Assembly (NCBI GenBank): GCA_964546415.1
Contig: CAZJJV010000001.1
Location: 1 to 39,142 of the forward strand
Direction: 5' to 3'
Source: an uncultured Candidatus Saccharibacteria bacterium
GTDB lineage: Bacteria; Patescibacteriota; Minisyncoccia; Minisyncoccales; CAZJJV01
DNA length: 39,142 nucleotides
Below the pieces are notes generated by a model. It did not search any database. It saw only the letters and a program-made list of their open reading frames with translations, and was not told the DNA's origin. Positions 5,472-37,966 of the stretch are shown here, piece after piece (position 1 is the stretch's first letter; each line of letters opens with the position of its first letter). A program made the translations under genes and the position numbers.

Positions 5472-7276
5472 TCAATATAGTAAACAAAAATTGAATAACC
5501 AATTTTGGCTACCGGGGGCTCATATTTTAAGAGCCAAAGATAATGTCCCCAAGGTTGATCAAAGCCAGGAACAGGTAACCCCCTTCCTCCTTGCAAGAAA
5601 GTGGCAGAAACCGCTAAATAATTACCTTTTTCAAATTCTTCTGGTTTTTTGGTTCCTGACCAAGGAAGGAATTTTTCTTTTAGATAAAATTTGGCATCTC
5701 CGCCCCCAAAATAATCAACATAAATTTTTTCTATCCCTTTTTTGTTCACCCATTTTTTTAATCTCTTTAAATCTTGCCCCCAATCTAAATTAGAATCAAC
5801 AGTGTAGAGATAAAGATGGTCTGGGCCTCCAATGATTTCATTGGCATAAGCAAGAAAATGAGGATAGATAGATAAGACAGAAATGGCCTGCCAGAGAAGC
5901 AAAAATCCCAATATCAGATATTTAATTTTTAAATAAGATTTTTTTAACCAATAGGTTGTACCCACACTTACTAAAATAAAAGTAAAAGGAAAAACGGGAA
6001 GCAGGTGCCTTACCCCAATGTTTAAATTAGATTTAATAGAGGTTGCCCAATAAATTATCAGCCACAAAAAGAGGGAAAAAGCCACAAAATGTTTTTTGAG
6101 ACATTCTTTTAATCTGGGGATGGTTTCCTTCCAAAATGGCCTCTTTACTAAATAAGCCAGATACAAAAGAACAATTAAGGTTAACAGGTGAAAGGCTAAT
6201 GGCTCTTTTATTATGTAAACGAAAGGGAAATAGGTTTTCCAGCCACTAGCTGAAACCTCTCCCAAAAAGTAGGTAGTGTGGCCCCCTGAAGCCCTCTGGA
6301 AGACCATTAACAGCCCCAATCCATAATGGGCCAAACTCCTTAATATTGGTTTGTCTGAAGCCCAAATAACAATTTCAGCTGGACAACGAGAAAGTTCTAA
6401 TAAAGAACCAAACTTTAGACAAGCCTTTTCAAGAGAGAGGGGTCCTCCAGAAAAAGAAGAAAGTAAAAATTTAGTGTCTCTTAACTGGCGTTGGGGAGGA
6501 TAGTTAAAGGTGTGGTAAAAATAGACCAACCAGACCACAATTAAATACAAAATTAAAACTGCCAGCAAAACCTTTATTATTTCTTTCCCTTTTCCTAATT
6601 TTAAAAGCCACCAAAAAAGGGAAACCAAAAAGAAAAAAGGAATCAATAATATTAAAGAAAATTTAAGAAGCTCTGCTATTCCCAAAGCAAATCCTGCCAA
6701 TAAAATATTCTTTTTGCTAGGAGATTTTAAGGCTTTTAGAAAATAAAAAGTAGCAAAAACCACCCCAAAAGCAGCCCCTACATCAGTGGTAACCAGTCTT
6801 CCATGAGCCAAAAAAGTAGGGGAGAAGGCAAAGAAGAAAAGGGCTAAAAGGGCGGCCCCTTTTCCGAAAAATTCTTTAGCGAATCTAAAAATGTAAAATC
6901 CCAAAAGACATAAAAGTAAAATCATTGGGATTCTAGCCCAAAAGATCATTTTTTCGGCAGGATTTCCCATATGATAAAGGAAGTGATAACCAAAACCCCA
7001 TTGGCCATTTATATCTTCTTGCCAATCTTTTATTTCGTAAGGAAACCTTATTTCCTGAATAAACAGTAAGGGAAAGGCGGCCAGGTCTTTAAGGAGGGGA
7101 GGGTGTTCAGGGTTTAGTCTCATGTCTTTTTGGGTTAAATAAGAATAGCCAGCTGGTAGGTGGGCCACCTCATCCATTGTAAGAGAATCGTCTTTCATTG
7201 AAAAAAGAGCCAAAATAAAAACCAATACCAAAAGACCTGCTATTATAAAATTGTATAGACACTTTTTAAAAGTCAT
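5468..7276 (-). CDS. polytopic membrane glycosyltransferase, GT39 / PMT_2 (ArnT-like, polyprenyl-phosphate-sugar dependent) family
   Basis: DEVAHLPAGYSYL...LNPEHPPLLKDLAAFPL near the N-terminus (the DE motif of GT-C enzymes), more than 10 hydrophobic segments and a soluble C-terminal domain. Confidence 0.7.
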   Translation of the reverse strand: MTFKKCLYNFIIAGLLVLVFILALFSMKDDSLTMDEVAHLPAGYSYLTQKDMRLNPEHPPLLKDLAAFPLLFIQEIRFPYEIKDWQEDINGQWGFGYHFLYHMGNPAEKMIFWARIPMILLLCLLGFYIFRFAKEFFGKGAALLALFFFAFSPTFLAHGRLVTTDVGAAFGVVFATFYFLKALKSPSKKNILLAGFALGIAELLKFSLILLIPFFFLVSLFWWLLKLGKGKEIIKVLLAVLILYLIVVWLVYFYHTFNYPPQRQLRDTKFLLSSFSGGPLSLEKACLKFGSLLELSRCPAEIVIWASDKPILRSLAHYGLGLLMVFQRASGGHTTYFLGEVSASGWKTYFPFVYIIKEPLAFHLLTLIVLLYLAYLVKRPFWKETIPRLKECLKKHFVAFSLFLWLIIYWATSIKSNLNIGVRHLLPVFPFTFILVSVGTTYWLKKSYLKIKYLILGFLLLWQAISVLSIYPHFLAYANEIIGGPDHLYLYTVDSNLDWGQDLKRLKKWVNKKGIEKIYVDYFGGGDAKFYLKEKFLPWSGTKKPEEFEKGNYLAVSATFLQGGRGLPVPGFDQPWGHYLWLLKYEPPVAKIGYSIFVYYID

Positions 7277-8880
7277 GGTGTTGGGAGATTATAAATAAAG
7301 ATGGGACCTTTTTCAATTTCAATATTTCCTTGAGGAAAAAGATTTAATAATTTTGATAATAATTTTTGATCAGGGCGCATTATCAAAACCTTAGCTGGTT
7401 TTTTTATTTCTATTTTATCTAAATCTTGGGGCAAAATATAAATTGCTTTTGATTTGGTGGGGTTTATATTTTCAATAAACATAATAGTTTGGGCTGGCAT
7501 AGGAATGCCATTAGGATAGGGCACCGGAACCCCAGAGACATTAACAATCACATATTTTGAAAGGCCCTTTTTTAGATTAACTAAATATTCTCCCATTTTA
7601 ACATAATTTTGAGAAAAAGCATCTTTGACCTCTTTTTTATTTGCCCATTTCACAAAATATTTATTATATTGGAAAAGCATTAGGGCTACCAAAAAAAGAA
7701 AAATGGCTATCTTGAGTAGCAGTTTATTTTTAGTAGAGAGAGTTAAAATTTGATAAATTTGCCAACCCCCCAAACCGGCAAGGATATAAACCGGAATGGT
7801 AGTTCCAATGGTTCTTAAAGCGTGGGGTATTCCTTCTCTGGTTAAAATTCCAGCCAAAAGCATAGCCAAAAAAGTAAAAGAGAGCAGGTAAGAAGTAGTA
7901 AGAAGTGGGTAGTTTTTATTTTGATAATTTGTTTTTTTAAAGATTTCTTTGAAGGTTAAAAACAAGCCAATTAAAAACAAAATGCCTACTGGCCAAAAAA
8001 GCTGGGGAGAGCCAGAGAAGTTGTGACGCCAGTTAGGATCTCCGTAAACATTAAACATTCCCAGGTGAGCCAAGAGAGACCTTAAAAATTCTTGGGCTGG
8101 ATTTTGGGCAGAAAAGATAGAAATAGGACCTGCTCTTTCCAGAAATTCTGTTGGATGATAAAGAAAATAAATGCCTAGGGGTAGGGCTACGAGAAAAATA
8201 GTAAAAAGGGCTAGAGAAACTAATTTTCCAAATTCTTTTTGAAGGTTTTGTTGTTTGAAATAAAGCCAACCAAAGAGAAAAACGAAGGGCAAAATTAAAA
8301 CTGCCATTCTAAAGGGAGTATAGGTGTAAAAACCCAACCCGAAAAACAATCCCCCAAAAATTGCCCACAAATACGTCTTTTTTGAAAGAGAAGACCCTTT
8401 CAGATCGTTGAAAGCCCTGAATAAAAAATAAAAAGAAAAGGCCAAAACAAAAGGCAGGAGAATTCCCCGAAAGGCAATTCTGGAGAAATTTGTGTGCCAA
8501 AAAGAAATACTCAAGAAAAAAGAGGCCAAAAGGGCAATTCTTTCTGGTGAAGGCGATTTTTTATTAGAAAAGGTAAATAACTCTTTGGTAAAAAGAAACA
8601 AACCTAAAACAGTGAGCGTTCCTATAAGGGCTGAAACAATTCTTAAAGAAAGAATTGAGGGTCCGAAAATTGAAAACGAAACAAAAACCAAATTAATAAA
8701 AAGTCCCTCTCTTCCATTGTTTTCTGGATAAAATATTTTGCCTGCTCTAAACAGGGCTTCGTTTCCATTAATGGCTTCATCTGGATAAAGGCCAGGGGGG
8801 AGGATGTTTATTTTCCAAAACCTAAAGAAGGTGGCTATCAGCAAAACCAACAATAATATCAACCAGTATTTTCTAGCCAT
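7273..8880 (-). CDS. polytopic membrane glycosyltransferase, GT39/GT83 ArnT-like family (paralogue of the downstream gene)
   Basis: FFRFWKINILPPGLYPDEAINGNEAL (DE motif in the first loop), many TM segments, and an ATGA overlap with the 5468-7276 gene. Confidence 0.75.
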   Translation of the reverse strand: MARKYWLILLLVLLIATFFRFWKINILPPGLYPDEAINGNEALFRAGKIFYPENNGREGLFINLVFVSFSIFGPSILSLRIVSALIGTLTVLGLFLFTKELFTFSNKKSPSPERIALLASFFLSISFWHTNFSRIAFRGILLPFVLAFSFYFLFRAFNDLKGSSLSKKTYLWAIFGGLFFGLGFYTYTPFRMAVLILPFVFLFGWLYFKQQNLQKEFGKLVSLALFTIFLVALPLGIYFLYHPTEFLERAGPISIFSAQNPAQEFLRSLLAHLGMFNVYGDPNWRHNFSGSPQLFWPVGILFLIGLFLTFKEIFKKTNYQNKNYPLLTTSYLLSFTFLAMLLAGILTREGIPHALRTIGTTIPVYILAGLGGWQIYQILTLSTKNKLLLKIAIFLFLVALMLFQYNKYFVKWANKKEVKDAFSQNYVKMGEYLVNLKKGLSKYVIVNVSGVPVPYPNGIPMPAQTIMFIENINPTKSKAIYILPQDLDKIEIKKPAKVLIMRPDQKLLSKLLNLFPQGNIEIEKGPIFIYNLPTP

Positions 8881-12805: not shown

Positions 12806-13885
12806 ATGAAGGACTATTATAAAATTTTAGGCGTTTCTCGAGATGCTTCCCCTGAAGAGATAAAAAGGGCTTATTACAGGTTGGCCCATAAATATCATCC
12901 TGACAAAAGAGGAGGAGACGAAAAAAAATTTAAAGAGATAAATGAGGCCTATCAGGTTTTATCTGATAAAGAAAAGAGGGCTCAGTATGATAAATATGGA
13001 AGGGTTTTTGAGGGAGTAAGAGGTAGGACCGGGGAGGGATTTGATTTTCAATGGAGTTGGCCAAAATCTGGAGGTTTTGATTTTGAGGACCTAGAAGAAA
13101 TCATTGAGGAATTTTTTGGGTTTGGCCCTTTTAGAAAAAGAAAGAGAGATATTAAAAAAGGAAAAGACATTAGTATAGAGATAGAGATTCCCCTGGAAGA
13201 CACCTTAAAAGGAACAGAAAAAAAGATTAAATTAAAAAAATATGTTGTTTGTTCTCGTTGTCAAGGGAGCGGAGCGGAACCAGGGAGTAAAATAAAAGAG
13301 TGTTTTTCATGCCGAGGGACAGGGCAGGTTCAAGAGATCAAACAAACCCTTTTTGGTTCTTTCACCAGATATACAACCTGTCCAGAATGTGGGGGAGAGG
13401 GTTTTAGGCCAGAAAATTTATGTAATGTTTGCCGAGGAGAAGGAAGAATAAAAGGAGAAGAAGAGATTAGCGTTTGGGTTCCCCCTGGGGTGGATACAAA
13501 TCAAATAATAAAAATTGAAGGAAAGGGAGAGGCCGGTAGGAGGGGAGGAAAAAACGGAGATTTATATGTAAGGATAATCGTGAAAAAACATCCTGTTTTT
13601 GAAAGGAAGGGAGATGATCTTTTTGTGTCAGTACCTATTAGTTTTACCCAGGCAGCTTTGGGAGATGAGGTAGAGGTGCCTACCCTGGAAGGGAAAAAGA
13701 TTTTATTAAGGGTACCTCCTGGAACTGAATCTGGAAAGATATTTAAAATTTCTAAAAAAGGAATTCCTCATTTTGCTGGCCGTGGCAGAGGTAATCTTTA
13801 TGTAAATCTGGTTGTGAAAACTCCAAAGAAATTGACCAAAAAACAAAAAGAAATTTTGAAGAAATTAAGAGAAGAAGGATTGTAG
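12806..13885 (+). CDS. dnaJ: co-chaperone DnaJ (type I: J domain plus four CxxCxGxG zinc-finger repeats)
   Basis: [31 protein letters not shown], then [24 protein letters not shown] and CNVCRGEG. Confidence 0.95.
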
Positions 13886-13955
13886 CCCCCATAGCTCAAT
13901 GGTAGAGCAGCGGCCTTTTAAGCCGTTGATCTGGGTTCGATTCCTAGTGGGGGCA
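13885..13955 (+). tRNA. tRNA-Lys (anticodon UUU), 71 nt, CCA not encoded
   Basis: Hand-folded cloverleaf. Acceptor GCCCCCA / TGGGGGC (7 bp perfect). D arm GCTC-AATGGTA-GAGC. Anticodon arm GCGGC-CTTTTAA-GCCGT with TTT at 13917-13919. T arm CTGGG-TTCGATT-CCTAG. Discriminator A13955. Confidence 0.9.
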
Positions 13956-13956
13956 C

Positions 13957-22512: not shown

Positions 22513-23463
22513 ATGAAAAAAGATTCTAGACCCATCATTTCCCATATTGACGATTTTTTAGAATATTTAGATGTGGAAAGAGGTCTGTCAGTAAGATCTC
22601 AACAGACCTATAGAAGATTTTTAAAAAAATTTGAAGATTGGCTCAAAAAAAACAATCTTGAAAATCTTTTACCCCACCAACTTTCTGAAGATCATATAAG
22701 AAAGTATCGTTTCTTTCTTTCCCAAAGTTTTAACAGGGCCACTAAAGAACCAATCAAAAGATCTACTCAAAATTACTACCTTATTGCTTTAAGGAATTTT
22801 TTGAATTATTTTGCTGAAAGAGGAATTTTGTCTTTGCCAGCCGAAAAAATTAAACTGGTAAAACAAAAAGAAAGAGTGATTAAATTTCTGGACCTAGAAC
22901 AAATTGAAAAACTTTTGGCTGCTCCTAATCCAGAAAGCATTGTGGGTTTGAGAGATAAGGCCATTTTAGAAGTTTTCTTTTCTACCGGATTGCGGGTTTC
23001 AGAATTAGTAGCCCTTGACCGTCGTCAGTTCGTTAATCTTCAAAATAAAAAAGATTTAGAATTAGGAATCGTTGGTAAGGGCGGCAGACCCCGAACTGTT
23101 TATTTTTCAGAAAGGGCTTTATATTGGTTGAAAAAATATTTAGAAGCCAGAAAAGATAAAGAAAAAGCCCTTTTTATTAGTTATAAAGGGCCCAAAAATA
23201 AGGCTGGAAAGAGGTTGACGGTTCGGGCAGTAGAATTATTGGTCAAAAAATATGCTGTTTTGGCTGGCTGTCCCATCACTACTACACCTCATACTATTCG
23301 CCATAGTTTTGCCACCGACCTCTTAAAGAAAGGTGTAGATGTGAGAATTGTCCAAGAGTTTTTGGGCCACAAAAACATCTCCACTACTCAAATCTATACC
23401 CATGTCACCAGGCCTCAATTAAGAGAAATTCATAGAAAATATCACGGATTTACTAAAAAATAG
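22513..23463 (+). CDS. tyrosine site-specific recombinase, XerC/XerD family
   Basis: N-terminal SAM-like domain. Catalytic region GLRVSELVAL, HTIRHSFATDLLKKGVDVRIVQEFLGHKNISTTQIYTHV (R..HxxR..H..Y). Confidence 0.9.
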   Translation: MKKDSRPIISHIDDFLEYLDVERGLSVRSQQTYRRFLKKFEDWLKKNNLENLLPHQLSEDHIRKYRFFLSQSFNRATKEPIKRSTQNYYLIALRNFLNYFAERGILSLPAEKIKLVKQKERVIKFLDLEQIEKLLAAPNPESIVGLRDKAILEVFFSTGLRVSELVALDRRQFVNLQNKKDLELGIVGKGGRPRTVYFSERALYWLKKYLEARKDKEKALFISYKGPKNKAGKRLTVRAVELLVKKYAVLAGCPITTTPHTIRHSFATDLLKKGVDVRIVQEFLGHKNISTTQIYTHVTRPQLREIHRKYHGFTKK

Positions 23464-27750: not shown

Positions 27751-28926
27751 TTACAAATTTTTCAAAATCTCAATCGCTTTTTCTAACTGGGGATCTCTTC
27801 CTGCCTCAAAATCCTCTTCACTAATTTCTACTTTGATATCTGGTTCTAACCCTCTTTCAGTGATTAAATCTCCTTTGGGGGTCAACCAATGAGCCACCGT
27901 GACCTTTAAAGAGGACCCTCCACTTAATTTTTCTAACTCTTGGACAGAACCCTTTCCAAATGTTTTTTCTCCTATTAATAACACTCCCCGATTATCTCTT
28001 AAGGCACCTGCTAATATTTCTGATCCAGAAGCCGAACCTTCGTTAATTAAAACCACTAACGGATAATCCAAAAAACTGGCTGGCCCCTGAGATTTATAGT
28101 AATTCTTTTTTTTATTTTTGCCAAAGTCTTCAATGGCGACCATCTTTCCTCTTTCCAGAAACCAACCAGCAATATCTTGAACCACCCTTAAATAGCCTCC
28201 GGGATTATTCCTAACATCTAATATAATTTTTTTGGCCGGACTATTCAAGATTTCAAGGGCGGCCTTTTTAAAATCAGAACTAGCCTTTTCGGTAAATTGA
28301 TACAATTGAATATAAGCAATCTCTCCTTCTTTTAGTTCCCATTTTAAAGAAGGAATTTCAATTACCGCTCTCTTAACCTTAAATTCTTTAGGCAAATCCC
28401 ATTCTTTTCGCAAAATAGTAAGGGCGACTTCGGTTCCTTTGGGCCCCCTTATTAATTCTACTGCCTCATCTATGGTGATGTCAGTTGTTGGATTTCCATC
28501 TATTTCCAAAATTTTATCTCCTGCTCTCAAACCAGCTTTCTGGGCTGGTGTTCCTTCTAAGGGAGCAATTACCTGAAGTTGTCCCTTTCTGATTCCAATT
28601 TCCATTCCCACTCCTTCATAGGTGCCCCTGACATCTTCTACAAACCTTTTGGTTTTCTCGGGATCCAAAAATACAGTATAAGGATCTCCTAAAGATTTTA
28701 CCATACCAGCGATTGCTCCATAGAGCATCTCCTGATTGTCAAATTTTGCTTTGTCAACAAACTTTTCTTGCAAAACCTCATAGGTTTCCCAAAACAAAGA
28801 AAAATCAAAGTTTCCTGGAGGATAAATTCTACACTCTGTTTGCTCTTTACCAATCCACAAACCCAAAACAAAACTTATCAAGACAATCAAAATTAAAACT
28901 GGTTTTTTGTTAGGTTTAAAAAGCAT
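27751..28926 (-). CDS. S41-family C-terminal processing (tail-specific) peptidase with a PDZ domain
   Basis: N-terminal signal anchor, PDZ motif AQKAGLRAGDKILEIDG, and catalytic region LINEGSASGSEILAGALRD...GEKTFGKGSVQ. Confidence 0.9.
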   Translation of the reverse strand: MLFKPNKKPVLILIVLISFVLGLWIGKEQTECRIYPPGNFDFSLFWETYEVLQEKFVDKAKFDNQEMLYGAIAGMVKSLGDPYTVFLDPEKTKRFVEDVRGTYEGVGMEIGIRKGQLQVIAPLEGTPAQKAGLRAGDKILEIDGNPTTDITIDEAVELIRGPKGTEVALTILRKEWDLPKEFKVKRAVIEIPSLKWELKEGEIAYIQLYQFTEKASSDFKKAALEILNSPAKKIILDVRNNPGGYLRVVQDIAGWFLERGKMVAIEDFGKNKKKNYYKSQGPASFLDYPLVVLINEGSASGSEILAGALRDNRGVLLIGEKTFGKGSVQELEKLSGGSSLKVTVAHWLTPKGDLITERGLEPDIKVEISEEDFEAGRDPQLEKAIEILKNL

Positions 28927-29009: not shown

Positions 29010-30740
29010 CTATTTTAATTCTTTTCTTATATCTTGAAGTTCTTTCTCAATGGTTTTTCTTGAACATTCTAAGGCTTTTTTTAGATTATCTCTTATTTTC
29101 TTTTCTTCTTTTGTGAGGCCTGGTTTTCCATCAAGATATTCAATTTGTTTTTTTATTTCTTTCCTTAGGCCTTTGAAAGCCATCACGACCGCCCTATTAA
29201 GTTCTCTGGTTTCCCTCTTCAATCTTTTTTTCCAAATTGAAATTCGATACCAAGCGTAAAAGAATATCAACAAAAGCCCAATAATAATAAGAACCAAGGT
29301 AACCATAACACTAAGATAGTTTATTGCTATTTTACCAAATTTTAAAAATGGAGGCAAACCTACAGAAAAGCGATACTCTTTAGAGGGAAAGCTAAGGGCT
29401 CCTTTTTCATTTTGGGTTTGAGCCCAAGTTTTATATTCTCCCTGCTCTAAAGAACCCAAAACAATCCTCCAATAACCTTTCTCGTTTGTCTCAGCCTCTT
29501 TTTTGATCGGTTCCTCGTTTTCTTTTTGGTAAAACAATGTAACATGAGAGTAAGGAATACTCTTTCCTTCTAAGGTTAATTTTGAATCAGGTAAAACATT
29601 TTTGGGACAAGATTCAATTTTTGGAGACTCTATTGGTAAAACCTCAAGATCGGTTTTGGCTTCAGAAAAATTGCCTGCTCTATCAAAGGCCTTGACCACG
29701 ATTTTATGCGTCCCTGGGGCCTGGGGAGGCAACTCTAAAGGATTAGATTTGGTAATTCCAGTTGCCTGAAAGGGCTCCCCTTCTCCTATTTTTACTTCAT
29801 AGTAGGCAATCCCTGAAGGTTTGTCGGTAGTGTTAAATAAGAGAATGGGGGTGGGGTCCGTTGGGTCTTCTTTTTGGATTTCAATTTCAAAAGAAGCAGG
29901 GGGAAGCGTGTCGATCATTATTTTTCTGTGAGTTAGTTTCCCCCAGCCATAACTATTTTTAAAATTTATATGGAAATACCAAATTCCGTCTTTTAGATTT
30001 TCAAAAGAAACCTTGTCTGGTAAGCCCTCGGCTACAAATTTAGGATTAGTGGTGGGGTTTTGATCTAAGCCATAACTTATCTTTTCTACGTCGGGCGGTA
30101 ATTTCCAATGGATTTCAGGACTATTATTTGAATACCATTGATCTTCTTGGGGATGGGTTGAGGAAGAAAGAATAGGGGCAGAAGGGGTGCCAACATGCGT
30201 TTGAAAAGGAGTTTCTTCTGTTGTTTGGGGAGCCGCCCCTGTCTTAAAAGTATAAAGGCCCCCTATCATATTAGTTAAGACATTGGTTCCTTTTCCATCA
30301 GCTGCCAAAATAGAGCCTGAGGAAAAATTGACCTGAGTAGAGACTGGAAGCCTAGATTTAAAAACGATGGTAAAGATGGTTCCTGATTTTCCTGAAAAGG
30401 GCGTGGGGGTTCCCCCTCCAAAAACTATAGTTCCCAAAGAGTTAGAAAAGGTGGGTTCGGTAGTCCAAAGAGAAAAAATGGAACCGGTTTTAGAAAGATT
30501 AACCACTGAAATTTCTTGGGGATTAAAAATTAGGGTTCCTTCTGCTGCATTAATGGGTTGGTCGCCGCTATTTACCCTTACCTTTACTGAAAAAGTTTGG
30601 CCAACCGAATAGGTTCCACTGGCTGGAGAGAGGTATAAAGAAGCCCCTCCAGCCCTTGTTTCGCTTACTCTAAGCCAAAAAAACAAAAGGAGAATAGATA
30701 TTATAAAACCTCCAATTAGTTTTAGTTTTTTATTTTTCAT
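29010..30740 (-). CDS. secreted, C-terminally membrane-anchored surface protein: N-terminal cohesin-like domain, Ig-like modules, TM helix and a charged coiled-coil cytoplasmic tail of about 85 aa
   Basis: Signal peptide ending ETRA|GGASLYLSP. Cohesin-like stretch YSVGQTFSVKVRVNSGDQPINAAEGTLIFNPQEISVV...GTIFTIVFKS. DTLPPASF...SGIAYYEVKIGEG...VKAFDRAGN module. TM helix YLSVMVTLVLIIIGLLLIFFYAWY. Confidence 0.6.
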   Translation of the reverse strand: MKNKKLKLIGGFIISILLLFFWLRVSETRAGGASLYLSPASGTYSVGQTFSVKVRVNSGDQPINAAEGTLIFNPQEISVVNLSKTGSIFSLWTTEPTFSNSLGTIVFGGGTPTPFSGKSGTIFTIVFKSRLPVSTQVNFSSGSILAADGKGTNVLTNMIGGLYTFKTGAAPQTTEETPFQTHVGTPSAPILSSSTHPQEDQWYSNNSPEIHWKLPPDVEKISYGLDQNPTTNPKFVAEGLPDKVSFENLKDGIWYFHINFKNSYGWGKLTHRKIMIDTLPPASFEIEIQKEDPTDPTPILLFNTTDKPSGIAYYEVKIGEGEPFQATGITKSNPLELPPQAPGTHKIVVKAFDRAGNFSEAKTDLEVLPIESPKIESCPKNVLPDSKLTLEGKSIPYSHVTLFYQKENEEPIKKEAETNEKGYWRIVLGSLEQGEYKTWAQTQNEKGALSFPSKEYRFSVGLPPFLKFGKIAINYLSVMVTLVLIIIGLLLIFFYAWYRISIWKKRLKRETRELNRAVVMAFKGLRKEIKKQIEYLDGKPGLTKEEKKIRDNLKKALECSRKTIEKELQDIRKELK

Positions 30741-31674
30741 TTTCCTTTTGGAGCCTTAACTTCCTCTTTAAATAAGTCCAATACCCTACCCCAATTAAAA
30801 TTAAAACCAAGCCAATTATCCAGTTAATAATTGAGAACCTTTTAGGTAAATAAGGCCTAAACTCAACAATCCTTTCATTTCCTGCTTTATCTACCGCCTT
30901 TACTTTTATTATACTTTTTAAATTTTGATCTTCCAATAAATGGGGGCTCTCAGCTATTTTCCAAGGATTCTCTCCCTCTTTTACTTCATAATGGTCGATA
31001 CCGGTTTGTTTGTCTTGGGTATTAAAAATTATAAAATATCTTCCTTCAAAAACCTGAGGATCTTTTAAAACCAAGATACCAAATGGTTCTGGAGGGGCGG
31101 TATCTTTTTTTAATTCTTTTTCTAAAATTTTTTCCAAAGATTCACCCCTCTCTTTTAAAATTTGATATATAGCTTTTTCTAATTTTAATTGGGCTTCTGT
31201 CCCCAAACCATCATTTAATAATACTTTTGAGTTTTTTGAAAATTTAACTTCAACCACACCCTTTTCTCCTACTAAAATTTCAGGAACCCTAAAGATAATT
31301 TCTCCTAAAATGTTGCTTTCGCCAGGATCACCGGCAATCTTTCCGCAATAACCTCCGGGTATTCCACCAGAAAAAGAAATTTTACCATCTTCAATTTTGG
31401 GTTTTTCTAACCATATAGAAATCAAAGATTCACCCATCAAAAAATCTTTAACTACTAAAAGATTTTTGTTGTATTCAATTTCTGCTTTTATGGTGTTGAT
31501 ACACTCTTTTTCAGGATCAATTTTAACCTTCACCCCAAACTCCTGCCCCATTTTTAACTGAGCCCTTGATGGTTCAAAATATAAACTCGCCCCCCATGCC
31601 CCAAGGGGCAACACTAAACCGACACCAAACAAGACACTAAACAGAAACAAAACTTTTTTATGTTTTTTTGCCAT
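30730..31674 (-). CDS. secreted, C-terminally membrane-anchored cohesin-like surface protein (shorter paralogue of the 29010-30740 product)
   Basis: Signal peptide ending GAWG|ASLYFEP. MGQEFGVKVKIDPEKECINTIKAEIEYNKNLLVV. Shared module DTAPPEPF...TGIDHYEVKEGEN...VKAVDKAGN. TM helix IINWIIGLVLILIGVGYWTY. Overlaps the next gene by 11 nt. Confidence 0.6.
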   Translation of the reverse strand: MAKKHKKVLFLFSVLFGVGLVLPLGAWGASLYFEPSRAQLKMGQEFGVKVKIDPEKECINTIKAEIEYNKNLLVVKDFLMGESLISIWLEKPKIEDGKISFSGGIPGGYCGKIAGDPGESNILGEIIFRVPEILVGEKGVVEVKFSKNSKVLLNDGLGTEAQLKLEKAIYQILKERGESLEKILEKELKKDTAPPEPFGILVLKDPQVFEGRYFIIFNTQDKQTGIDHYEVKEGENPWKIAESPHLLEDQNLKSIIKVKAVDKAGNERIVEFRPYLPKRFSIINWIIGLVLILIGVGYWTYLKRKLRLQKENEK

Positions 31675-32044
31675 AGATCCTTCGGATTATTTGGACACCA
31701 TTTGAAGTACCAAAATTGATTAAATAACCAACATTATAGTTAGAGGATTTTAAATAATACCAAAATTGTTTAATGTCATCCTGAGTCAATTTTGGTTTTA
31801 CCTTTACCTCAACTATGATTTTATTCTCAACTACTAAATCGGGGATATAGGTACCAACTTTTCTCCCATTGTAAAAAATATCTATTCTTTTTTCTTTCTC
31901 AACTTTGAGATTTTTGTCTTTTAAACCATAATAGAATGAGTTTTGATATACTTTTTCTTTATGCCGATTCCTAAACTTCTTATAAATATCAAATGCTACT
32001 CCCTGGATAACGTATGATTCTTGTTTATATAAAAGCTTAGCCAT
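31658..32044 (-). CDS. GxxExxY-family protein (PD-(D/E)XK nuclease-like fold)
   Basis: HKEKVYQNSF (ExxY), YIPDLVVENKIIVEVKVKP (D...ExK core) and QFWYYLKSSNYNVGYLINFG match the family layout. Overlaps the downstream gene by 17 nt. Confidence 0.65.
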   Translation of the reverse strand: MAKLLYKQESYVIQGVAFDIYKKFRNRHKEKVYQNSFYYGLKDKNLKVEKEKRIDIFYNGRKVGTYIPDLVVENKIIVEVKVKPKLTQDDIKQFWYYLKSSNYNVGYLINFGTSNGVQIIRRIYGKKT

Positions 32045-32101
32045 AAGTTTAGATTCAGTTTTGCGTAAAGTTTGGTATCGGTTTAGTGAATGATAGCTTC
32101 G

Positions 32102-33259
32102 CTAGCCGGTCCAGTAATAAAGCATAATTGAAAAATCTGGCAAATTAACTATTCCGTCTTGGTTTTGATCAGCGCAAGGATTTTCTCTTTTCCACCAATA
32201 AAGCAAAATAGAAAAGTCAATTAAATTAACCCTACCATCTTTATTTAAATCAGCGCCAGGGCAAACAAATCCTGTAACCTTTCGCCCTACATAAAAAGCC
32301 AAAACCTGAGAAAAAGAAGATTCTATATTTTCTTTTGGGTCTTTGGCCTTGGCTCTGGCAGTGTGGGTTCCCTCTTCTAAAACCAAAGTATTAATCGATT
32401 CCTCCCACCTCCCTTCTTCATCAGAAAAAGTGGTTTGGACTATTTCTGAAGATTCAATATGAACAAAAACCTGGGCATTGGGGACGGTAGAACCAAAAAT
32501 ATTCAAGTTTTCTCCCTTTTTGAAGGAAGTTTTAGGTAATTCTATGGTAGGGGGCAAAAAAATACCCGAAATAGTGGTGGTCATATCTTTAATTACCGTG
32601 GCTGTAAAGGAAAAGGTAATAGACCTTCTACCCTTTTTGTCTTCTGCCCACAAAGAGAAGGTCCAAAGTCCAGGGGTGGCTTTTTTGACTTCTATTCTAA
32701 AATTGGCTGAATCATCTGCCTTTTTGGTAGCCACCACCCTTCCATCTTGTAAAAGAGTAATTAAGGCTTCAGGATAGGCCTTCCCTTTAATAATTACCCT
32801 TGTTTCTTTGGTTACTGTTTCTCCACCGCCCCCGCCTCCAAAAGAGACAGGCGGAGCAGGTTCGGTTTGGCAAACCTCATCACAACCGTCTCCAGCCAGA
32901 TTATTTCCATCGTCACAGGTTTCTCCATACTGAGTTTGTAAGATTCCATCTCCACAATAAGGAGCCCAGCCATCACAACTTGTATTACAATACCTGCCTT
33001 CAATAGTAGAAGAGTAAAGGCCGTTACTAGAACCATCATCGCAGACTTCTGGCCCCTCAACTATTCCATTGCCACAAATGTAAATTACCACCGAGGTTTG
33101 AAGAGAGCTAGCCTTGACCTGATTTTTAAATAAAAAAGGACCCAAAATTGGTCCTGTTAAAATTAAGAAAAACAGAATTAAAGATGCTAGATTGACTTGG
33201 TTTCTTATTTCATACCTTTTTCCTTTTTCGCCAAAATTTAATTCCTTGGTATAAACCAT
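32102..33259 (-). CDS. secreted protein with Cys-rich CxxG...CDDGN repeats, two Ig/carboxypeptidase-regulatory-like modules and a C-terminal duplicated dockerin-like segment
   Basis: CGNGIVEGPEVCDDG and YCGDGILQTQYGETCDDGNNLAGDGCDEVC (Myxococcus-type cysteine-rich repeat pattern). C-terminus DLNKDGRVNLIDFSILLYWW and DQNQDGIVNLPDFSIMLYYW (dockerin repeats, about 32105-32260). Only one ATG is available, giving a 50-nt overlap with the upstream gene. Confidence 0.6.
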   Translation of the reverse strand: MVYTKELNFGEKGKRYEIRNQVNLASLILFFLILTGPILGPFLFKNQVKASSLQTSVVIYICGNGIVEGPEVCDDGSSNGLYSSTIEGRYCNTSCDGWAPYCGDGILQTQYGETCDDGNNLAGDGCDEVCQTEPAPPVSFGGGGGGETVTKETRVIIKGKAYPEALITLLQDGRVVATKKADDSANFRIEVKKATPGLWTFSLWAEDKKGRRSITFSFTATVIKDMTTTISGIFLPPTIELPKTSFKKGENLNIFGSTVPNAQVFVHIESSEIVQTTFSDEEGRWEESINTLVLEEGTHTARAKAKDPKENIESSFSQVLAFYVGRKVTGFVCPGADLNKDGRVNLIDFSILLYWWKRENPCADQNQDGIVNLPDFSIMLYYWTG

Positions 33260-34172
33260 AGCTTATTCCAGCCAAAACAACAAAAAGACAAATAAGGGTT
33301 GTTATTTTATCTTTTAAGGGCAAATCAAAGAACCCTGCTTTTTGATAATTACTAATGGTGCCCTGAGGGAGAATGCTTAAATGAATTTTTCCTCGATTTA
33401 CCACCTCCTCTTTCTTATAAATTTTATATTTTGCCCAATAACTGCCAGGTTTTAAATTGGTAAGCAATTTTGCTGTCACCCACTCTGTTTTGAAAGGTTC
33501 AACTTTTTTATCTATTTTCTTTGTTTCAATTGATTCTAAAAGTTTTTCCTCTTTGCTATCATAAATATCAAAATGAATTTTACTAGGAGCTGCTTTTATG
33601 TTTCCAGTATTTTCTATTTGAATTGAAAATCTAATAATTCCTGGGAAATGCCAAAAGAGCCATTTGTAACCCTCTTCTAAATCTGAAACCCTAACCCCCC
33701 TTACCTTAAAGTCAAAAATTTCTTTGGTTACATTTAAATTAACATCAATTTGCCCTCCCAGGGTAATACTTACTGTACCTAGTTCTGGAGCCTTCAAAGG
33801 AGTTGTTTTTACCCTAATTGACCCCTTGTATCTCTTAAATTGAGCATTTTCTGGTACCTTTACGCTAATAATTATTGGAAATTGTTTTTCTCCCTTAGGT
33901 AAGATAAATTCTTTTCCTTTATCTACCGAAAACCAACTATTAGCTTCTGGTACATTGAAAATTAACTCAACCTTCCAATCTTCGTCTGGTTGATCTCTAA
34001 CTAAAATAATTTTTTGTTCAAAATAAGAACCCTGGGTTAGGTTTTCGTTCCTAACATGGGGAGGAGAAATTCCAAAACCCGCCCTTGCTGCCGAGGGCAA
34101 CAAACACAAAACTGACACTAAACTAAACATTAAACTAACACTAAGCCAAAATTTTCGCCAGCCCTTTAACAT
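33210..34172 (-). CDS. secreted two-beta-sandwich protein with a C-terminal TM anchor and basic tail (architecture reminiscent of DUF916/DUF3324 CscA-type proteins)
   Basis: Signal peptide ending SAARA|GFGISPP. SYFEQKIILVRDQPDEDWKVEL and IQIENTGNIKAAP (Ig-like strand patterns). C-terminal TTLICLFVVLAGISYGLYQGI followed by KFWRKRKKV. Confidence 0.45.
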   Translation of the reverse strand: MLKGWRKFWLSVSLMFSLVSVLCLLPSAARAGFGISPPHVRNENLTQGSYFEQKIILVRDQPDEDWKVELIFNVPEANSWFSVDKGKEFILPKGEKQFPIIISVKVPENAQFKRYKGSIRVKTTPLKAPELGTVSITLGGQIDVNLNVTKEIFDFKVRGVRVSDLEEGYKWLFWHFPGIIRFSIQIENTGNIKAAPSKIHFDIYDSKEEKLLESIETKKIDKKVEPFKTEWVTAKLLTNLKPGSYWAKYKIYKKEEVVNRGKIHLSILPQGTISNYQKAGFFDLPLKDKITTLICLFVVLAGISYGLYQGIKFWRKRKKV

Positions 34173-34244
34173 ATTTTAAATTCTAAACAATTAAACAGAT
34201 TCGATTCTGTTTCGTGTTTTAATTTCACTCCTGTTTTGTGCTTA

Positions 34245-35966
34245 TTACTGCCAGTCGTCAGATTCACTTGTTACCCCTGCAATGGTGTTAGTTCCGGTAT
34301 AAGTACCAGGAGGAGTACCATCAGGAACCTCCAACAACCAATAGATAGCCTTAGATGCAGGGCTTCCGGTGGTGGTAGTTTTTGGGCAGTTAAGTTCGTA
34401 TTCAGTAGCGCTAGTGCTTAAATCAGTACCATTGCCATAACTAAAGCCACTAGTGAAAGAGTGTTCTTGATAACTTACGGCAATTGTATTGCCTCCAGAG
34501 GTCATATCTGTTCCGGAAAGCTCTACATCTAGTCCTACATTTCCGGTCGCCTTGACGGTGGTGGATTGCTCAGAAGAAACATTTCCTGCAGAAACATTTC
34601 CATAACCGATACTTGATTCTACCACATCATAAGCGAGAAACATTCCCACATCATTTCCGTCAGCATCTTCTACCAAGCCACTATCAGCTGAATCATCATC
34701 TATGGCTTTGACTGAGACCAACCAATTTTGACTAGGATATTCGGTGTCTGTTCCGGTAGGATCAGCATGGTACTGGAGAGAAAAAGTGCAGGTCCAGGTA
34801 GCGTTTGAGTCGCTAGTGCCACCACAAGAGCCATCGTCTTGGGAACAACTAGGATTCCAAAGAGCATAAGCCTCAGGGTAACAATAGTTGGCATTATATT
34901 CTCCTGCTTCATCACATCCTGTTTGGCCAATTCCTGAACGATAAACATTGATGATTGCTGAAGCAATTTCATTTTCCGAAGAAGAATTTTCGCAACTATT
35001 ATCATCAGTAACAGTAAATTTTACCTTAAAGCCTGAGGTTTCTCCTTCAGCCACTGTTAAGCTTAAACTTCCTGACTCATCGGTATCAAGTAGCTCAATA
35101 GAAGAGGCAGTAATGCTTGGAGCAACATTACTTACAGTTAAGGTAGAATCAGTTCCCTGGGATCCTCCACTGGCTTCAAAACCATGATTGTCTACGACAA
35201 ATCCATAGGCTGAATAATTATCATCTGGATAGGGGGTGGTAATATCATAAGAACAACTGGGGTTGCTGGCAGAGGCTGTGCTATGACACCATTCCCCGTC
35301 TCCACAAGAAGGACTGTCTCCTCCGGTGAAAGAATCGCTTTTACAAACATAAAGAGTAACTGTATCTGAGCTCCCATCAGTATCTGAATCTGATGCGGTG
35401 GTTGTCCAGGTTACAGTGTTGCCAGGGTCAGTTGGTGAATCATCTGAATAAGCAGTAAATGAGGGCCGATGATTTACCTTAAAAGGAGTTCCTGAGTCTC
35501 CTGAACCTTGGTTTGCTGAGGAACATTGAGCACTGGAACCGTTGCCGTCACAAGCGAAAGCATACCACTCATTAGATTCTGAATCTGCATCTTGGGTAGT
35601 ATAAGAGCAAGATGCTTCGCTTTCATCAGCAGTAGCAGTAGATATACACCACTCACCTCCTGGACATGTTGGCGCTCCTCCATTAGTCGCACTTATCTCA
35701 TTTGTTTTACAGACAGCCAAATACCAATCTTCTCCATTAGGATCGTCAGCGGTGGCTTTGAAGGTAACATTTTGACCAGCGTCTGTTGGAGAAGTGCTAG
35801 AAGAAGTAGGATCTTCGTGAGGATCTACGGTAAAACTGGGAGGAGCATTCCCTACTGTTACTGAAGTGGAAACATCGGTTGCCTCTACCAGTTTTTGCCA
35901 AATCAATACTACCCCTCCACTGATGACCAACAAACACAAAAGTCCCAGCAAAATTCTCTTAGCCAT
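34245..35966 (-). CDS. large acidic, Cys-paired, Ser/Thr/Asp-rich secreted protein with tandem Ig/cadherin-like modules and a C-terminal module shared with the 36110-37966 product
   Basis: N-terminal signal/anchor. Two tandem repeats share PSFT...VCK(T/S)...C(P/G)xGEWC(I/H)STA...SCSY. A third module starts VSNVAPSI. The C-terminus has TGNVGLDVELSGTDMT...IYWLLEVP...GTYTGT. Very few Lys/Arg. Confidence 0.6.
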   Translation of the reverse strand: MAKRILLGLLCLLVISGGVVLIWQKLVEATDVSTSVTVGNAPPSFTVDPHEDPTSSSTSPTDAGQNVTFKATADDPNGEDWYLAVCKTNEISATNGGAPTCPGGEWCISTATADESEASCSYTTQDADSESNEWYAFACDGNGSSAQCSSANQGSGDSGTPFKVNHRPSFTAYSDDSPTDPGNTVTWTTTASDSDTDGSSDTVTLYVCKSDSFTGGDSPSCGDGEWCHSTASASNPSCSYDITTPYPDDNYSAYGFVVDNHGFEASGGSQGTDSTLTVSNVAPSITASSIELLDTDESGSLSLTVAEGETSGFKVKFTVTDDNSCENSSSENEIASAIINVYRSGIGQTGCDEAGEYNANYCYPEAYALWNPSCSQDDGSCGGTSDSNATWTCTFSLQYHADPTGTDTEYPSQNWLVSVKAIDDDSADSGLVEDADGNDVGMFLAYDVVESSIGYGNVSAGNVSSEQSTTVKATGNVGLDVELSGTDMTSGGNTIAVSYQEHSFTSGFSYGNGTDLSTSATEYELNCPKTTTTGSPASKAIYWLLEVPDGTPPGTYTGTNTIAGVTSESDDWQ

Positions 35967-36109
35967 TTTTTATTTAAATTGTTTTAAATAGATTTATTTT
36001 AGAAAGCGGATCGACCTTTAAGGGCTATTATTTTATTATAACAAACCAATCATCTTTTGTTTAATAATTATCTTATTATATCTTCAAAAACCTTCTTCGT
36101 AAACCAATA

Positions 36110-37966
36110 TTATGGGCAAAAACTGTCTGAAACCACATCAAAAGAGATGTTTCCAGAATAGGTTTGGCTGGGTTTGTCTAAAGGAACCTTTAACTTCCAA
36201 TAAATATATTCTGATTGGTCAGAAGGATGGGTAGTGGGTTTGGTGGTGGATAATTCATGACAGGTAGGGGTGTTGGTCAAAGCAGTGCCTTCGCTGTCCC
36301 AATTAAAGCCAGAAGTAGAAGAATATTTCTGTTGGCTTACCGGAATAGAATAAGTAGACCAGGTTAGGTCAGTTCCTGAAAGTTGAACATCCACGGCTAC
36401 ATTACCAGTGGTAGTAATTAAAACTTGTTTTTCTACTGAAACCTGATTAGGATTGACAGTGCCGTAATTAATGCTAGAGACATCTAACTTAAAAGCAGCC
36501 AATTCATTAATGGTTACAGTTTGGGTATTGAAGGCAGATTGAGATTGAGAATCAGTGGCCGTAACCTTTGCTGTCCACTGATTGGAAGCATTAGCATGAA
36601 ACCAGACATCTACAGTGGCTTGGGCTTCAGCAGAAGTGTCTCCAGGACCGGTGCAGGTATCATCCACTTCAGTAAAGGTTAAATTAGGATAACAATCATT
36701 ATCATCAGCAGTGCAACTATCTGTCTCTGCTCCAGCGTCATAAAAAACCCCACTAATTGAGCCATTTACAAAAACATCTTCACAACCATTGAGGTCAGAA
36801 ATGGTGGCAGTAATGGTTACGGTGGTGGTTGAATCGGCATTCAAATCTATGGGGCTTGGCAAGATGCTAATACTGTCTACTGTTGGAGACTGGTTTCCAA
36901 CCTGAAGAGTAGTGCTACCAGAGATGGCTACCGGAAAGGTGCCACTAACTGTGCCACTAGAAATTGTTACATCACTACTAGAAGAAATTTCAATATCAAG
37001 GGTTTCTCCATCTGAGGCTCCAGAACCCACATCTAAAACCACATAAAGACAAACCTGAGATGTCCCCACCGTCATTGTGCCACTAACAGTGGCTTTTTCG
37101 CTCGCATTAAAAGAGGCGGCTGTACCAAAAAGGGTTTCTGTCCCATCATAATTACAGGTGGCGGCGGTTTCATAATATATATCAACATTTGAAAGATTAG
37201 AATTAGCATTCACGGTGCCAGTTTCACTAATCACAATTTGGCTGACGGTTACGGTGCTAAAATCCGTTGCCATTGTAAAGGCCCCACCCACATAACTATT
37301 GGTTGAAGGAATATCCATTCTTGAAACCTGGCTTCCTGTACTTTGTATCGTAAGGGTAGGAAGGGTGTAGGTAACTGTAATCCAAACATAATCAAAACGA
37401 ATAGCATCAGGTGCGGCCCCATCCTTATTAGTAAATTCTATATCAACATTTTGGAGCTCTGATTTGGTATCCACACCTTGGGCATATAGATCATAGGTTA
37501 AATCCCCGCTCCAGCCAGTGATATCAGTTGGTTTAATAGTCGTGTTTGTTAATCCGCTTCCATTATCATAACGCACATAATTGGGCCCATTGTAACCATC
37601 CTCTGCCCCATATTCTAAGTGTAAAACAGCCCCAGTAATGTTTGCATTATCTGGAATAGAAGAAACATCAAAAGTATCAATATACATTATCTGGTTTTTA
37701 TCAACAAAATAGCATCCATCACCAGCTGAATCAGGTGCTGTGCCGTCTGGATCACAAGTAGCATCATCTGCCGTAATTTCACTTAAGGCAGAGGGCGAAG
37801 AATCGTTTGAATGCTTTGAGGCCGGTAAAATATTCACTGTATCAGCTTTTATTTGTTCGATTCTAAAAGGAGGAGGTAGTCCTTTCCAGGTTTGCCACCA
37901 ATCAGAAAAGACCCAAAGAAGCATTAAAAAGATTATAATAGAAAACTTTAAAAACCCCTTTTTCAT
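36110..37966 (-). CDS. large acidic secreted multi-domain surface protein, C-terminal half paralogous to the 34245-35966 product
   Basis: N-terminal signal anchor. Beta-rich modules (ITGAVLHLEY...FDYVWITVTY; VTVSQIVISETGTVNANSNLSNVDIYY). VGNQSPTV Ig-like module. The C-terminus has TGNVAVDVQLSGTDLT...YIYWKLKVP...QTYSGN. Confidence 0.6.
   Translation of the reverse strand: MKKGFLKFSIIIFLMLLWVFSDWWQTWKGLPPPFRIEQIKADTVNILPASKHSNDSSPSALSEITADDATCDPDGTAPDSAGDGCYFVDKNQIMYIDTFDVSSIPDNANITGAVLHLEYGAEDGYNGPNYVRYDNGSGLTNTTIKPTDITGWSGDLTYDLYAQGVDTKSELQNVDIEFTNKDGAAPDAIRFDYVWITVTYTLPTLTIQSTGSQVSRMDIPSTNSYVGGAFTMATDFSTVTVSQIVISETGTVNANSNLSNVDIYYETAATCNYDGTETLFGTAASFNASEKATVSGTMTVGTSQVCLYVVLDVGSGASDGETLDIEISSSSDVTISSGTVSGTFPVAISGSTTLQVGNQSPTVDSISILPSPIDLNADSTTTVTITATISDLNGCEDVFVNGSISGVFYDAGAETDSCTADDNDCYPNLTFTEVDDTCTGPGDTSAEAQATVDVWFHANASNQWTAKVTATDSQSQSAFNTQTVTINELAAFKLDVSSINYGTVNPNQVSVEKQVLITTTGNVAVDVQLSGTDLTWSTYSIPVSQQKYSSTSGFNWDSEGTALTNTPTCHELSTTKPTTHPSDQSEYIYWKLKVPLDKPSQTYSGNISFDVVSDSFCP

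Follow-up and report, generated by a model that had tools for sequence, protein, structure and literature searches.

A large part of bacterial diversity belongs to the Patescibacteria, which for the most part live attached to other cells. Here we describe a gene cluster found in a 39,142-nucleotide (nt) stretch of DNA from an uncultured bacterium of this group (contig CAZJJV010000001.1, positions 1 to 39,142; the whole stretch is called the window below). Seven genes between positions 29010 and 37966, all on the minus strand and numbered g1-g7 from the downstream end, had been interpreted as a unit encoding a complete anchored cell-surface apparatus (the original prediction). Results of our comparative analyses suggest that the conserved Patescibacteria cluster represented by these genes encodes a non-enzymatic assembly with two docking subsystems, which would be tethered to the cytoplasmic membrane and exposed on the cell surface; we give this reading a roughly even chance of being right.

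The described systems that come closest to part of this cluster are the csc/WxL clusters of Firmicutes (Siezen 2006, as cited in PMC10599100). These combine one WxLIP, a protein of 320-380 amino acids (AA), often basic, with a signal peptide, DUF916 and DUF3324 domains and a transmembrane (TM) helix, and at least two proteins that carry a WxL domain at the C-terminus, one of them short and one long with variable N-terminal binding domains (PMC10599100). The WxLIP was proposed to bind and stabilise the WxL proteins on the cell surface, and AlphaFold predicts the WxL sandwich to be completed by a strand of the WxLIP (PMC10599100). Plasmid examples from Enterococcus, Listeria and Bacillus have the genes in the order long adhesin, LPXTG protein, one to three WxL proteins and WxLIP. 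For Patescibacteria, the relevant sections of a 2026 review (PMC13293708) present type IV pili as the common attachment machinery and mention S-layers in some species, with no gene named there. We found no published description of the present cluster in the literature on Patescibacteria or Parcubacteria cohesins, dockerins, S-layers and surface clusters, or on Minisyncoccus. The earlier statement that no characterised system has such a composition is true of the whole; its g7-g6-g5 part does have an organisational analogue in the Firmicutes WxL/WxLIP (csc) clusters.

What the data show is which genes and domains are present, how g5 folds, how well the gene order is conserved and where a C-terminal module of g6 and g7 occurs; how the proteins pair, that they are at the surface and that they serve adhesion we infer from these features, presented below. 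In the first subsystem, g1 and g2 would be type-I membrane proteins holding a cohesin domain off the membrane on Ig-like spacers, and the secreted g4 would plug into g1/g2 via its C-terminal Ca-binding dockerin. In the second, the anchorless secreted proteins g6 and g7 would be held at the surface by g5 through a C-terminal module of about 140 AA, with g6 as a conserved base and g7 as a variable outward head, which is lectin-like (DUF2341/LamG) in relatives. The likely product would be a coat or a layer of fibrils on the surface through which the cell adheres to a host cell or a particle, and such adhesion is plausibly the most natural output.

Layout and conservation of the cluster

The seven open reading frames (ORFs) are the following:

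g1: 29010-30740, minus strand, ORF of 576 AA
g2: 30730-31674, minus strand, ORF of 314 AA
g3: 31658-32044, minus strand, ORF of 128 AA
g4: 32102-33259, minus strand, ORF of 385 AA
g5: 33210-34172, minus strand, ORF of 320 AA
g6: 34245-35966, minus strand, ORF of 573 AA
g7: 36110-37966, minus strand, ORF of 618 AA

Coordinates and lengths of these co-directional ORFs are exactly those given in the original prediction, and its overlaps of 11, 17 and 50 nt were reproduced; the remaining junctions are gaps of 57, 72 and 143 nt. The 50-nt g5/g4 overlap presupposes the first ATG of the 385-AA g4 ORF, and since the N-termini of homologues vary, this start is uncertain. Hydropathy scans revealed an N-terminal hydrophobic segment in six of the seven products, g3 being the exception, and a C-terminal TM segment in the 576-, 314- and 320-AA products (g1, g2 and g5), both as predicted. 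The domain calls that had been made were likewise all supported, namely two cohesin TM anchors, a Cys-rich dockerin protein and a two-domain anchored beta-sandwich protein, and g6 and g7 fit the description of two acidic multi-Ig proteins with a common C-terminal module. As to the absence of enzymes, Pfam and NCBIfam gave no enzyme domain in the six secreted products, none was seen in the relatives examined, and no hydrolase or other enzyme assignment came out of the profile and structure searches.

The conservation of the locus was scanned in one genome per GTDB species; 84 related loci were analysed, and a place was counted only where the flank was long enough. At least 191 species-level genomes have a g5 relative. 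Of the related loci with enough flank, 62-71 of 64-71 show the genes g6-g5-g4-g2-g1 in this order on the same strand, with the following counts for the single genes:

g6 in its expected place: 69 of 70 loci
g4 in its expected place: 71 of 71 loci
g2 in its expected place: 63 of 65 loci
g1 in its expected place: 62 of 64 loci

Across the colinear loci the median protein identities are only 35-46%; for g6 the median is 41% over about 600 AA. A g7-type gene lies upstream in relatives, where its product has the conserved C-terminal module and a length of 618-2490 AA. The 80 loci of species-representative genomes come from 80 different assemblies, which fits one copy per genome. Lack of conserved synteny had been named as a reason to give up the prediction; with the gene order kept in dozens of species-level genomes, this objection fails decisively. 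The assignment to a bacterium of the Candidate Phyla Radiation (CPR) also stood, as every named homologue is from Patescibacteria/CPR, and the base composition and gene content of the window fit a small AT-rich CPR chromosome.

The cluster is composite. On a Doudnabacteria contig the trio of a long module protein, g6 and a g5-like gene is present, and the next genes are unrelated and on the opposite strand; on a Dojkabacteria contig the trio begins likewise and the contig ends inside g5. The g7-g6-g5 trio, without cohesin-dockerin genes in Doudnabacteria, is thus the widely distributed core, to which the cohesin-dockerin trio is added in Paceibacteria-type genomes. This composite nature, with a Doudnabacteria trio devoid of the cohesin-dockerin genes, is what could be said for the products being independent secreted or membrane proteins that share a conserved neighbourhood and form no complex. 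We regard this as extremely improbable: same-strand colinearity is strict across dozens of species at 35-46% identity, the domain types are complementary (cohesin with dockerin), and a dedicated C-terminal module is found on two anchorless proteins beside one anchor that has no ligand domain.

Of the seven genes proposed as one unit, six form a real one and g3 does not belong to it. The g3 product is a GxxExxY / PDDEXK_3 protein of the PD-(D/E)XK kind (TIGR04256, E 1e-28; PF13366, E 2.5e-30), above both cutoffs (100 bits vs. 35 and 105.7 bits vs. 22), and has no signal peptide. The gene lies between g4 and g2, overlapping the g2 start by 17 nt. None of the 84 related loci has g3, and g4 and g2 are adjacent there; g3 is therefore an insertion outside the unit, and it looks as if a mobile or selfish gene had recently entered an operon that is fixed in other respects.

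Promoter and terminator scans did not differ in their outcome from scans of shuffled sequence. Two sigma-70-like hexamer pairs within the g7-g6 spacer of 143 nt (36035-36103, minus strand; 10/12 matches each, one with an extended TG) are a possible internal promoter for g6, by consensus match only in a scan that was overall not enriched over shuffles. The strongest hairpin of the region, a 10-bp G+C-rich stem with a T-rich tail (31587-31611, minus strand), lies inside the 5′ coding (signal-peptide) region of g2 and is probably not a terminator. Downstream of g1, at a distance of 83 nt, is a gene for a C-terminal-processing S41 peptidase with a PDZ domain (27751-28926, minus strand; CtpA/CtpB-like). 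It could be co-transcribed with g1 here; as a conserved partner of the cluster it was rejected, since relatives have SecD/SecF or other genes downstream of g1.

The putative anchor g5 and the modular proteins g6 and g7

The g5 product is a basic protein (pI 9.7) with a signal peptide, two tandem beta-sandwich domains, a C-terminal TM helix and a short Lys/Arg tail. Its AlphaFold2 model, obtained with a 56-sequence alignment, is confident (predicted local distance difference test, pLDDT, 90.7), and helix 286-319 is the TM segment. Foldseek comparison with the PDB returned PapD-like/ASH tandem domains, the E. faecium WxLIP (9i25_C, 9i1y; E about 1e-7) and FimC/PapD chaperones, the last giving the best target-normalised TM-scores in the list (0.44-0.47). 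The family counts 531 detectable members, with source names of only 'hypothetical' or 'uncharacterized'; no Pfam or NCBIfam family was above cutoff, and neither the single sequence nor the family profile found anything meaningful in the PDB. Its most conserved parts are the mature N-terminus, with a near-invariant AGFGISPP, and strand 138-148, which follows a low-confidence loop, has alternating hydrophobic residues and reaches a conservation of 0.83. In 69 of 70 loci g5 comes directly after g6, and we propose that it is the membrane anchor for g6 and g7. SH3_3 is a domain type known for cell-wall binding; one Doudnabacteria g5 homologue (L088:3582-4838, 418 AA) has a second TM helix and then an SH3_3 domain, and this helix is predicted to place the putative wall-binding domain back outside the cell.

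Both g6 and g7 are acidic (pI 4.05) with about 25% Ser+Thr, and they share about 200 C-terminal residues (37% identity, BLASTP E 4e-26) at these positions:

36152-36700, minus strand: C-terminal module of g7 (AA 423-605)
34248-34889, minus strand: C-terminal module of g6 (AA 360-573), with a core of about the last 140 AA and a conserved final Trp

The g6 product is secreted and has 18 Cys, 12 of them invariant, and four to five beta-sandwich domains (AlphaFold2 pLDDT 84.5). Its family comprises 559 homologues with 45-75% identity over the full length; in Azambacteria, Doudnabacteria, Dojkabacteria and Spechtbacterales the full-length identity is still 45-50%. It has no Pfam or NCBIfam family, its sequence and family profile gave nothing meaningful against the PDB, and full-length fold searches in PDB and viral libraries returned only generic multi-Ig/fn3 proteins (mastigoneme, AgI/II, integrin, phage tail). 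The g7 product, the variable long partner, has an N-terminal hydrophobic segment and no sequence match in Pfam, NCBIfam or the PDB; some of its homologues carry DUF2341, LamG or H-lectin-like domains. A type IV prepilin signal considered for g7 (MKKGF...) was rejected, as KGF is unconserved in homologues and Glu5 is missing, and so was a class III signal ('GK[IT][TI]' before the signal-peptide core) for g6, where the cleavage sites are ordinary AxA (ASA|D, VSA|D, VEA|D). Elsewhere in the window, two adjacent genes (5468-7276 and 7273-8880, both on the minus strand) encode PMT_2-family GT-C glycosyltransferases; because about 25% of their residues are Ser/Thr, g6 and g7 are plausible O-glycosylation substrates.

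When the last 144 AA of g6 were compared by phmmer with 1.84 billion representative proteins, 822 of these matched at E<=1e-3, including 282 with E<=1e-10. All but three of the 150 matches listed have the module at or near the C-terminus, in proteins of up to 2528 AA. Ten short matches were inspected as possible module-only proteins, the analogue of a short WxL protein; they start mid-domain, have no signal peptide and look like fragments. At the end of g6 (34248-34260) and in homologues P0257-P0355, a terminal Trp occurs within the last two residues in 7 of 10 inspected module proteins (endings such as ...GEAGEW, ...ATNTW and ...DDWQ), and the family consensus is likewise. As the module is strictly C-terminal, sits on varied N-terminal regions and is carried by two anchorless proteins beside g5, we infer that it behaves like a docking or retention module.

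In organisation this core resembles a WxL cluster. A basic g5 with the WxLIP layout, including a Lys/Arg tail, directly follows two secreted proteins with a common C-terminal module, one of which is long and variable in its N-terminal region, and the g5 model matches the solved WxLIP structures cited above. The order long protein - g6 - g5 corresponds to that of long adhesin, WxL protein and WxLIP, and is found in 69 of 70 Paceibacteria loci and also in Doudnabacteria and Dojkabacteria. Unlike a bare WxL domain, however, g6 is a large conserved multi-domain protein, and the CPR cluster, from Patescibacteria and not Bacillota, has cohesin-dockerin genes linked to it, joined in relatives by those of a MacB-type transporter. 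LPXTG/Gram_pos_anchor and sortase, both present in the Firmicutes examples, were not found in the window cluster with Pfam and NCBIfam. No Pfam match to the WxL domain (PF13731) was obtained for g6, g7 or 60 homologues, and the idea that their module is such a domain was dropped.

The conservation of g6 also bears on whether the cluster might form a housekeeping, S-layer-like coat, in which g6 would be a lattice or wall-associated protein, g5 the anchor and the cohesin-dockerin trio a second tier, together serving the envelope integrity of a thin-walled cell. For a surface protein g6 is unusually conserved (45-50% between CPR classes, median 41%), the 80 loci from 80 assemblies would suit such a role, and the window encodes a full peptidoglycan pathway. 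Moreover, g5 is weakly similar to NF033506, an archaeal 'putative S-layer protein' (E 4.7e-6), and its family to CARDB/DUF7490-type domains, and S-layers have been seen on some Patescibacteria, with no S-layer gene named in the sections of the review used here (PMC13293708). Yet the NF033506 match, the only one of this kind for g5, is far below cutoff (25.6 bits vs. 110), no SLH or other known S-layer anchoring domain was found, and the g7-type partners are highly variable and lectin-like, as would fit ligand binding. We consider a coat of this kind unlikely.

Cohesin and dockerin proteins

The g4 product is a secreted protein with Cys-rich DUF4215/myxo_disulf repeats, two Ig domains (Big_6 and Big_13) and a C-terminal dockerin:

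32105-32260, minus strand: dockerin module of g4, with two 12-residue Ca-binding loops, DLNKDGRVNLID and DQNQDGIVNLPD

The dockerin of g4 is above the Pfam Dockerin_1 cutoff (23.1 bits vs. 22.9), and the D/N positions of its loops are invariant or nearly so across the family. Of 40 family members, 39 have Dockerin_1 (best E 4e-10), 36 Big_6 and 35 DUF4215. The family profile matches solved dockerins (2y3n_B at 3.6e-6, 4fl4_A and 1daq), and the duplicated segment of about 22 residues with the loop DxNxDGxxxxxD, which defines a dockerin, is recognisable in the g4 sequence.

On the membrane side, g1 has a signal peptide, a cohesin (30246-30653), Ig-like modules (OmpL47-type and Big_13), a TM helix and a charged, predicted cytoplasmic tail of about 80 AA, and g2 has a signal peptide, a cohesin-like domain (31165-31596), an Ig-like 'DTxPP...DKxSG' module and a C-terminal TM helix. 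The two share the N-terminal cohesin-like domain, as had been noted, and the middle module is also common to both. Pfam detects Cohesin in 27 of 36 members of the g1 family, with Big_13 in the same number (best E 1e-9), and in 8 of 40 members of the g2 family (best E 1e-6). The single g1 sequence gave nothing meaningful against the PDB. The g2 family profile has seven PDB matches, all of them cohesins; the top five places are taken by type-II or anchoring-scaffoldin cohesins (5g5d at 4.8e-4, SdbA 2bm3 at 1.9e-3). A cohesin (PF00963) on the predicted cell-bound partner is in this way found at the family level. Homologues of g1 occur in a long form of about 575-640 AA, the window type, and a short form of about 310-330 AA that retains the cohesin, one Ig domain and the TM helix.

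In the proposed arrangement a cell-bound cohesin would capture a secreted dockerin protein, as in the non-cellulosomal cohesin-dockerin pairs of Peer et al. (2009; PMC3035643), and the solved proteins nearest to the g2 family belong to anchoring scaffoldins such as SdbA. The cluster differs from cohesin-dockerin systems and scaffoldins in that it has no enzymes or carbohydrate-binding modules (CBMs), that g1 and g2 are anchored by a C-terminal TM helix and not by SLH or sortase, and that each anchor has one cohesin, with a client, g4, that is Cys-rich, Ig-containing and non-catalytic. The succession of cohesin, Ig-like/BIG domains, one TM helix and cytoplasmic tail in g1 is also that of TMEM132-type adhesion molecules (PMC6030884); these are eukaryotic, and the parallel is one of architecture only.

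As cohesin-dockerin pairing is the defining glue of cellulosomes, g1 and g2 could instead recruit dockerin hydrolases encoded elsewhere for nutrient capture, with g4 as one client of several. Two cohesin anchors for one local dockerin would leave spare capacity, and for another uncultivated phylum, cellulosome-like complexes whose enzymes carry dockerins have been proposed (PMC8542988). However, neither dockerin-bearing glycoside hydrolases or peptidases, nor a multi-cohesin scaffoldin with CBM, nor any other enzyme or CBM was found in the cluster, the 39-kb window or the relatives' clusters inspected, and the sole dockerin protein is non-catalytic and strictly co-inherited with the cohesins (71/71). 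A cellulosome-like role is in our view highly improbable.

Transporter genes, N-terminal strands and possible role

Between the g7-type gene and g6, extra genes are present in 46 of 55 loci with enough upstream DNA (locus L040:2838-7977 is a worked example):

Extra gene of relatives, about 473 AA: four-fn3 membrane protein
Extra gene of relatives, about 448 AA: LolD/FtsE/MacB-like ABC ATPase with a helical C-terminal extension of about 220 AA
Extra gene of relatives, about 402 AA: MacB_PCD/FtsX permease
Often a further gene of relatives, 218 AA: TM and helical protein

In a tblastn search with the L040 ATPase and permease we obtained no match at E<=1e-3 in the 39 kb, and the closest relatives (L001, L004, L009-L011 and L014) are likewise without transporter genes at the locus. 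The subclade of the window has lost or moved them, and the word 'complete' in the original prediction had to be given up, as the fn3 protein, ATPase and permease of 46 of 55 relatives are not in the window. Transporters of the MacB, LolCDE and FtsEX class (type VII) pass ATP-driven motion to extracytoplasmic partners. The relatives' ATPase is nearest to LolD/FtsE/MacB (E 1e-54 to 1e-47, all under equivalog cutoffs) and the permease has MacB_PCD and FtsX domains; unlike in the known members, the ATPase has the extra C-terminal region, the partners are the four-fn3 protein and the 218-AA TM/helical protein with no HlyD-type adaptor, and the transporter sits inside a surface-protein cluster. Its presence in most relatives suggests ATP-driven assembly or release of components. 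The short form of g1 tends to co-occur with the ABC transporter (loci L020, L021, L023, L027, L036, L040 and others).

Several results weigh against the reading of the locus as an anchored assembly with two docking pairs. With the transporter missing, the version in the window may work differently or need genes elsewhere. The window cohesins score below the Pfam cutoff of 24.1 bits (22.8 for g1 and 16.4 for g2). A host-specific adhesin would not usually be as highly conserved as g6, nor apparently confined to one copy per genome, and this conservation would suit a core role in the envelope no less well. TM-scores of the g5 fold matches are low (0.2-0.47), and many unrelated tandem-Ig proteins share these matches; for a model of this kind low scores would be expected where the orientations of the two domains differ. 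The likeness to WxL clusters is not clearly borne out by sequence: DUF916 (PF06030) was not detected in g5 or its homologues, and WxLIP_HBD/DUF3324 (PF11797) appeared in only 3 of 56 g5 members at E>=0.0085. In hhalign comparisons the g5 family reached a probability of 25% against 36 true WxLIPs (E 7.6e-4, over 114 columns that include the signal peptide, pairing g5 domain 1 with DUF916) and 2% against three WxLIPs, and the g6 module scored less than 1% against eight true WxL domains. The g7-g6-g5 part would thus work like a WxL cluster by analogy and is not classed as one: by sequence the module is rejected as a WxL domain, and g5 is at best a doubtful WxLIP.

A further conserved feature of the secreted proteins is found at their N-termini. 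The one in g6 lies directly after an AxA-type signal-peptidase site:

35832-35882, minus strand: mature N-terminus of g6, ATDVSTSVTVGNAPPSF

Its motif D..TTSVTV.N..P is near-invariant (55 of 72 homologues by strict pattern), and this stretch is the most conserved of g6 (0.68 vs. 0.58-0.63 in the folded domains). Residues 31-45 have pLDDT <50 in the monomer model and are unstructured there; we propose on this basis that the mature N-terminus may be a free beta-strand. In g4 homologues, a comparable T.V.I strand separates the signal peptide from the Cys-rich repeats (window about 33085-33120), so that the non-homologous g6 and g4 have a similar motif T[ST]V.[VI] straight after their predicted signal-peptidase sites, and g7-type proteins begin with a conserved [IV][KN]I[FL]P strand. 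Taken together, these features are suggestive of beta-strand pairing between chains.

Such strands raise the question of whether the cluster builds a pilus-like polymer by strand complementation, with g5 as a membrane-tethered PapD-like chaperone or platform. In this case g6, perhaps capped by g7 or carrying g4, would insert its N-terminal strand into the C-terminal module of the next subunit, in parallel to chaperone-usher pili, TasA and archaeal bundling pili, and the MacB-type transporter would give mechanical work in most relatives. Speaking for it are the g6 N-terminus, most conserved yet without structure in the monomer, the g4 strand, which has no domain to pair with, the g7-type strand, and the FimC/PapD matches and conserved strand 138-148 of g5. 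The two Ig-like domains of g5 and the N-terminal strands of its partners are indeed shared with PapD/FimC and PapD-like/ASH systems. Unlike chaperone-usher chaperones, however, g5 is membrane-anchored, resembles FimC/PapD by fold only with no sequence similarity, and has large multi-domain partners in a cell with no outer membrane. No usher-like protein was found in the window or in relatives, and no sortase is present; PapD-like matches are generic for tandem Ig domains, and the conserved low-pLDDT N-terminus could be a mere linker, processing or glycosylation site. A fibre of this type strikes us as decidedly unlikely.

More generally, g7-g6-g5, with a C-terminal module of its own (in 822 representative proteins) and near-invariant, putatively free N-terminal strands, could be a previously unrecognised, Patescibacteria-wide surface organelle, separate in evolution from WxL and chaperone-usher systems and based on the same strand-complementation principle, which we put forward tentatively as possible, if doubtful. 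A membrane-anchored PapD/WxLIP-like protein would hold or polymerise multi-Ig subunits, and Paceibacteria would add a cohesin-dockerin tier, powered by the MacB-type mechanotransmission ABC transporter.

The rest of the window encodes Hsp70/DnaJ, tRNA synthetases, Mur ligases, FtsW, MurG, FemAB and UppS. A tyrosine recombinase gene (22513-23463, plus strand; XerC/D-like, Phage_integrase) and the sole tRNA gene of the window (13885-13956, plus strand; Lys-TTT) have no link to the cluster.

The building principles seen here, cohesin-dockerin pairing and an anchor with a common C-terminal module, are already known. New are the families g5, g6 and g7, their combination, the link to a MacB-type transporter, and the phylum; for these three core families there is no Pfam family, no informative source name and no literature that we could find. 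The cluster supplies concrete candidates (g5, g6, g7, g4, g1 and g2) for a surface layer or contact apparatus of Patescibacteria, and a testable design of two docking pairs with an ABC motor in most lineages. As there is a cultured relative in the class Minisyncoccia, localisation at the host contact site is directly testable. If the WxLIP-like pairing is true, the logic of Gram-positive WxL systems would extend to a distant phylum, by very remote homology or by convergence, and if g7-g6-g5 is an organelle of its own, it would rank among the candidates for the S-layer or attachment structure that cryo-EM has revealed on CPR cells.

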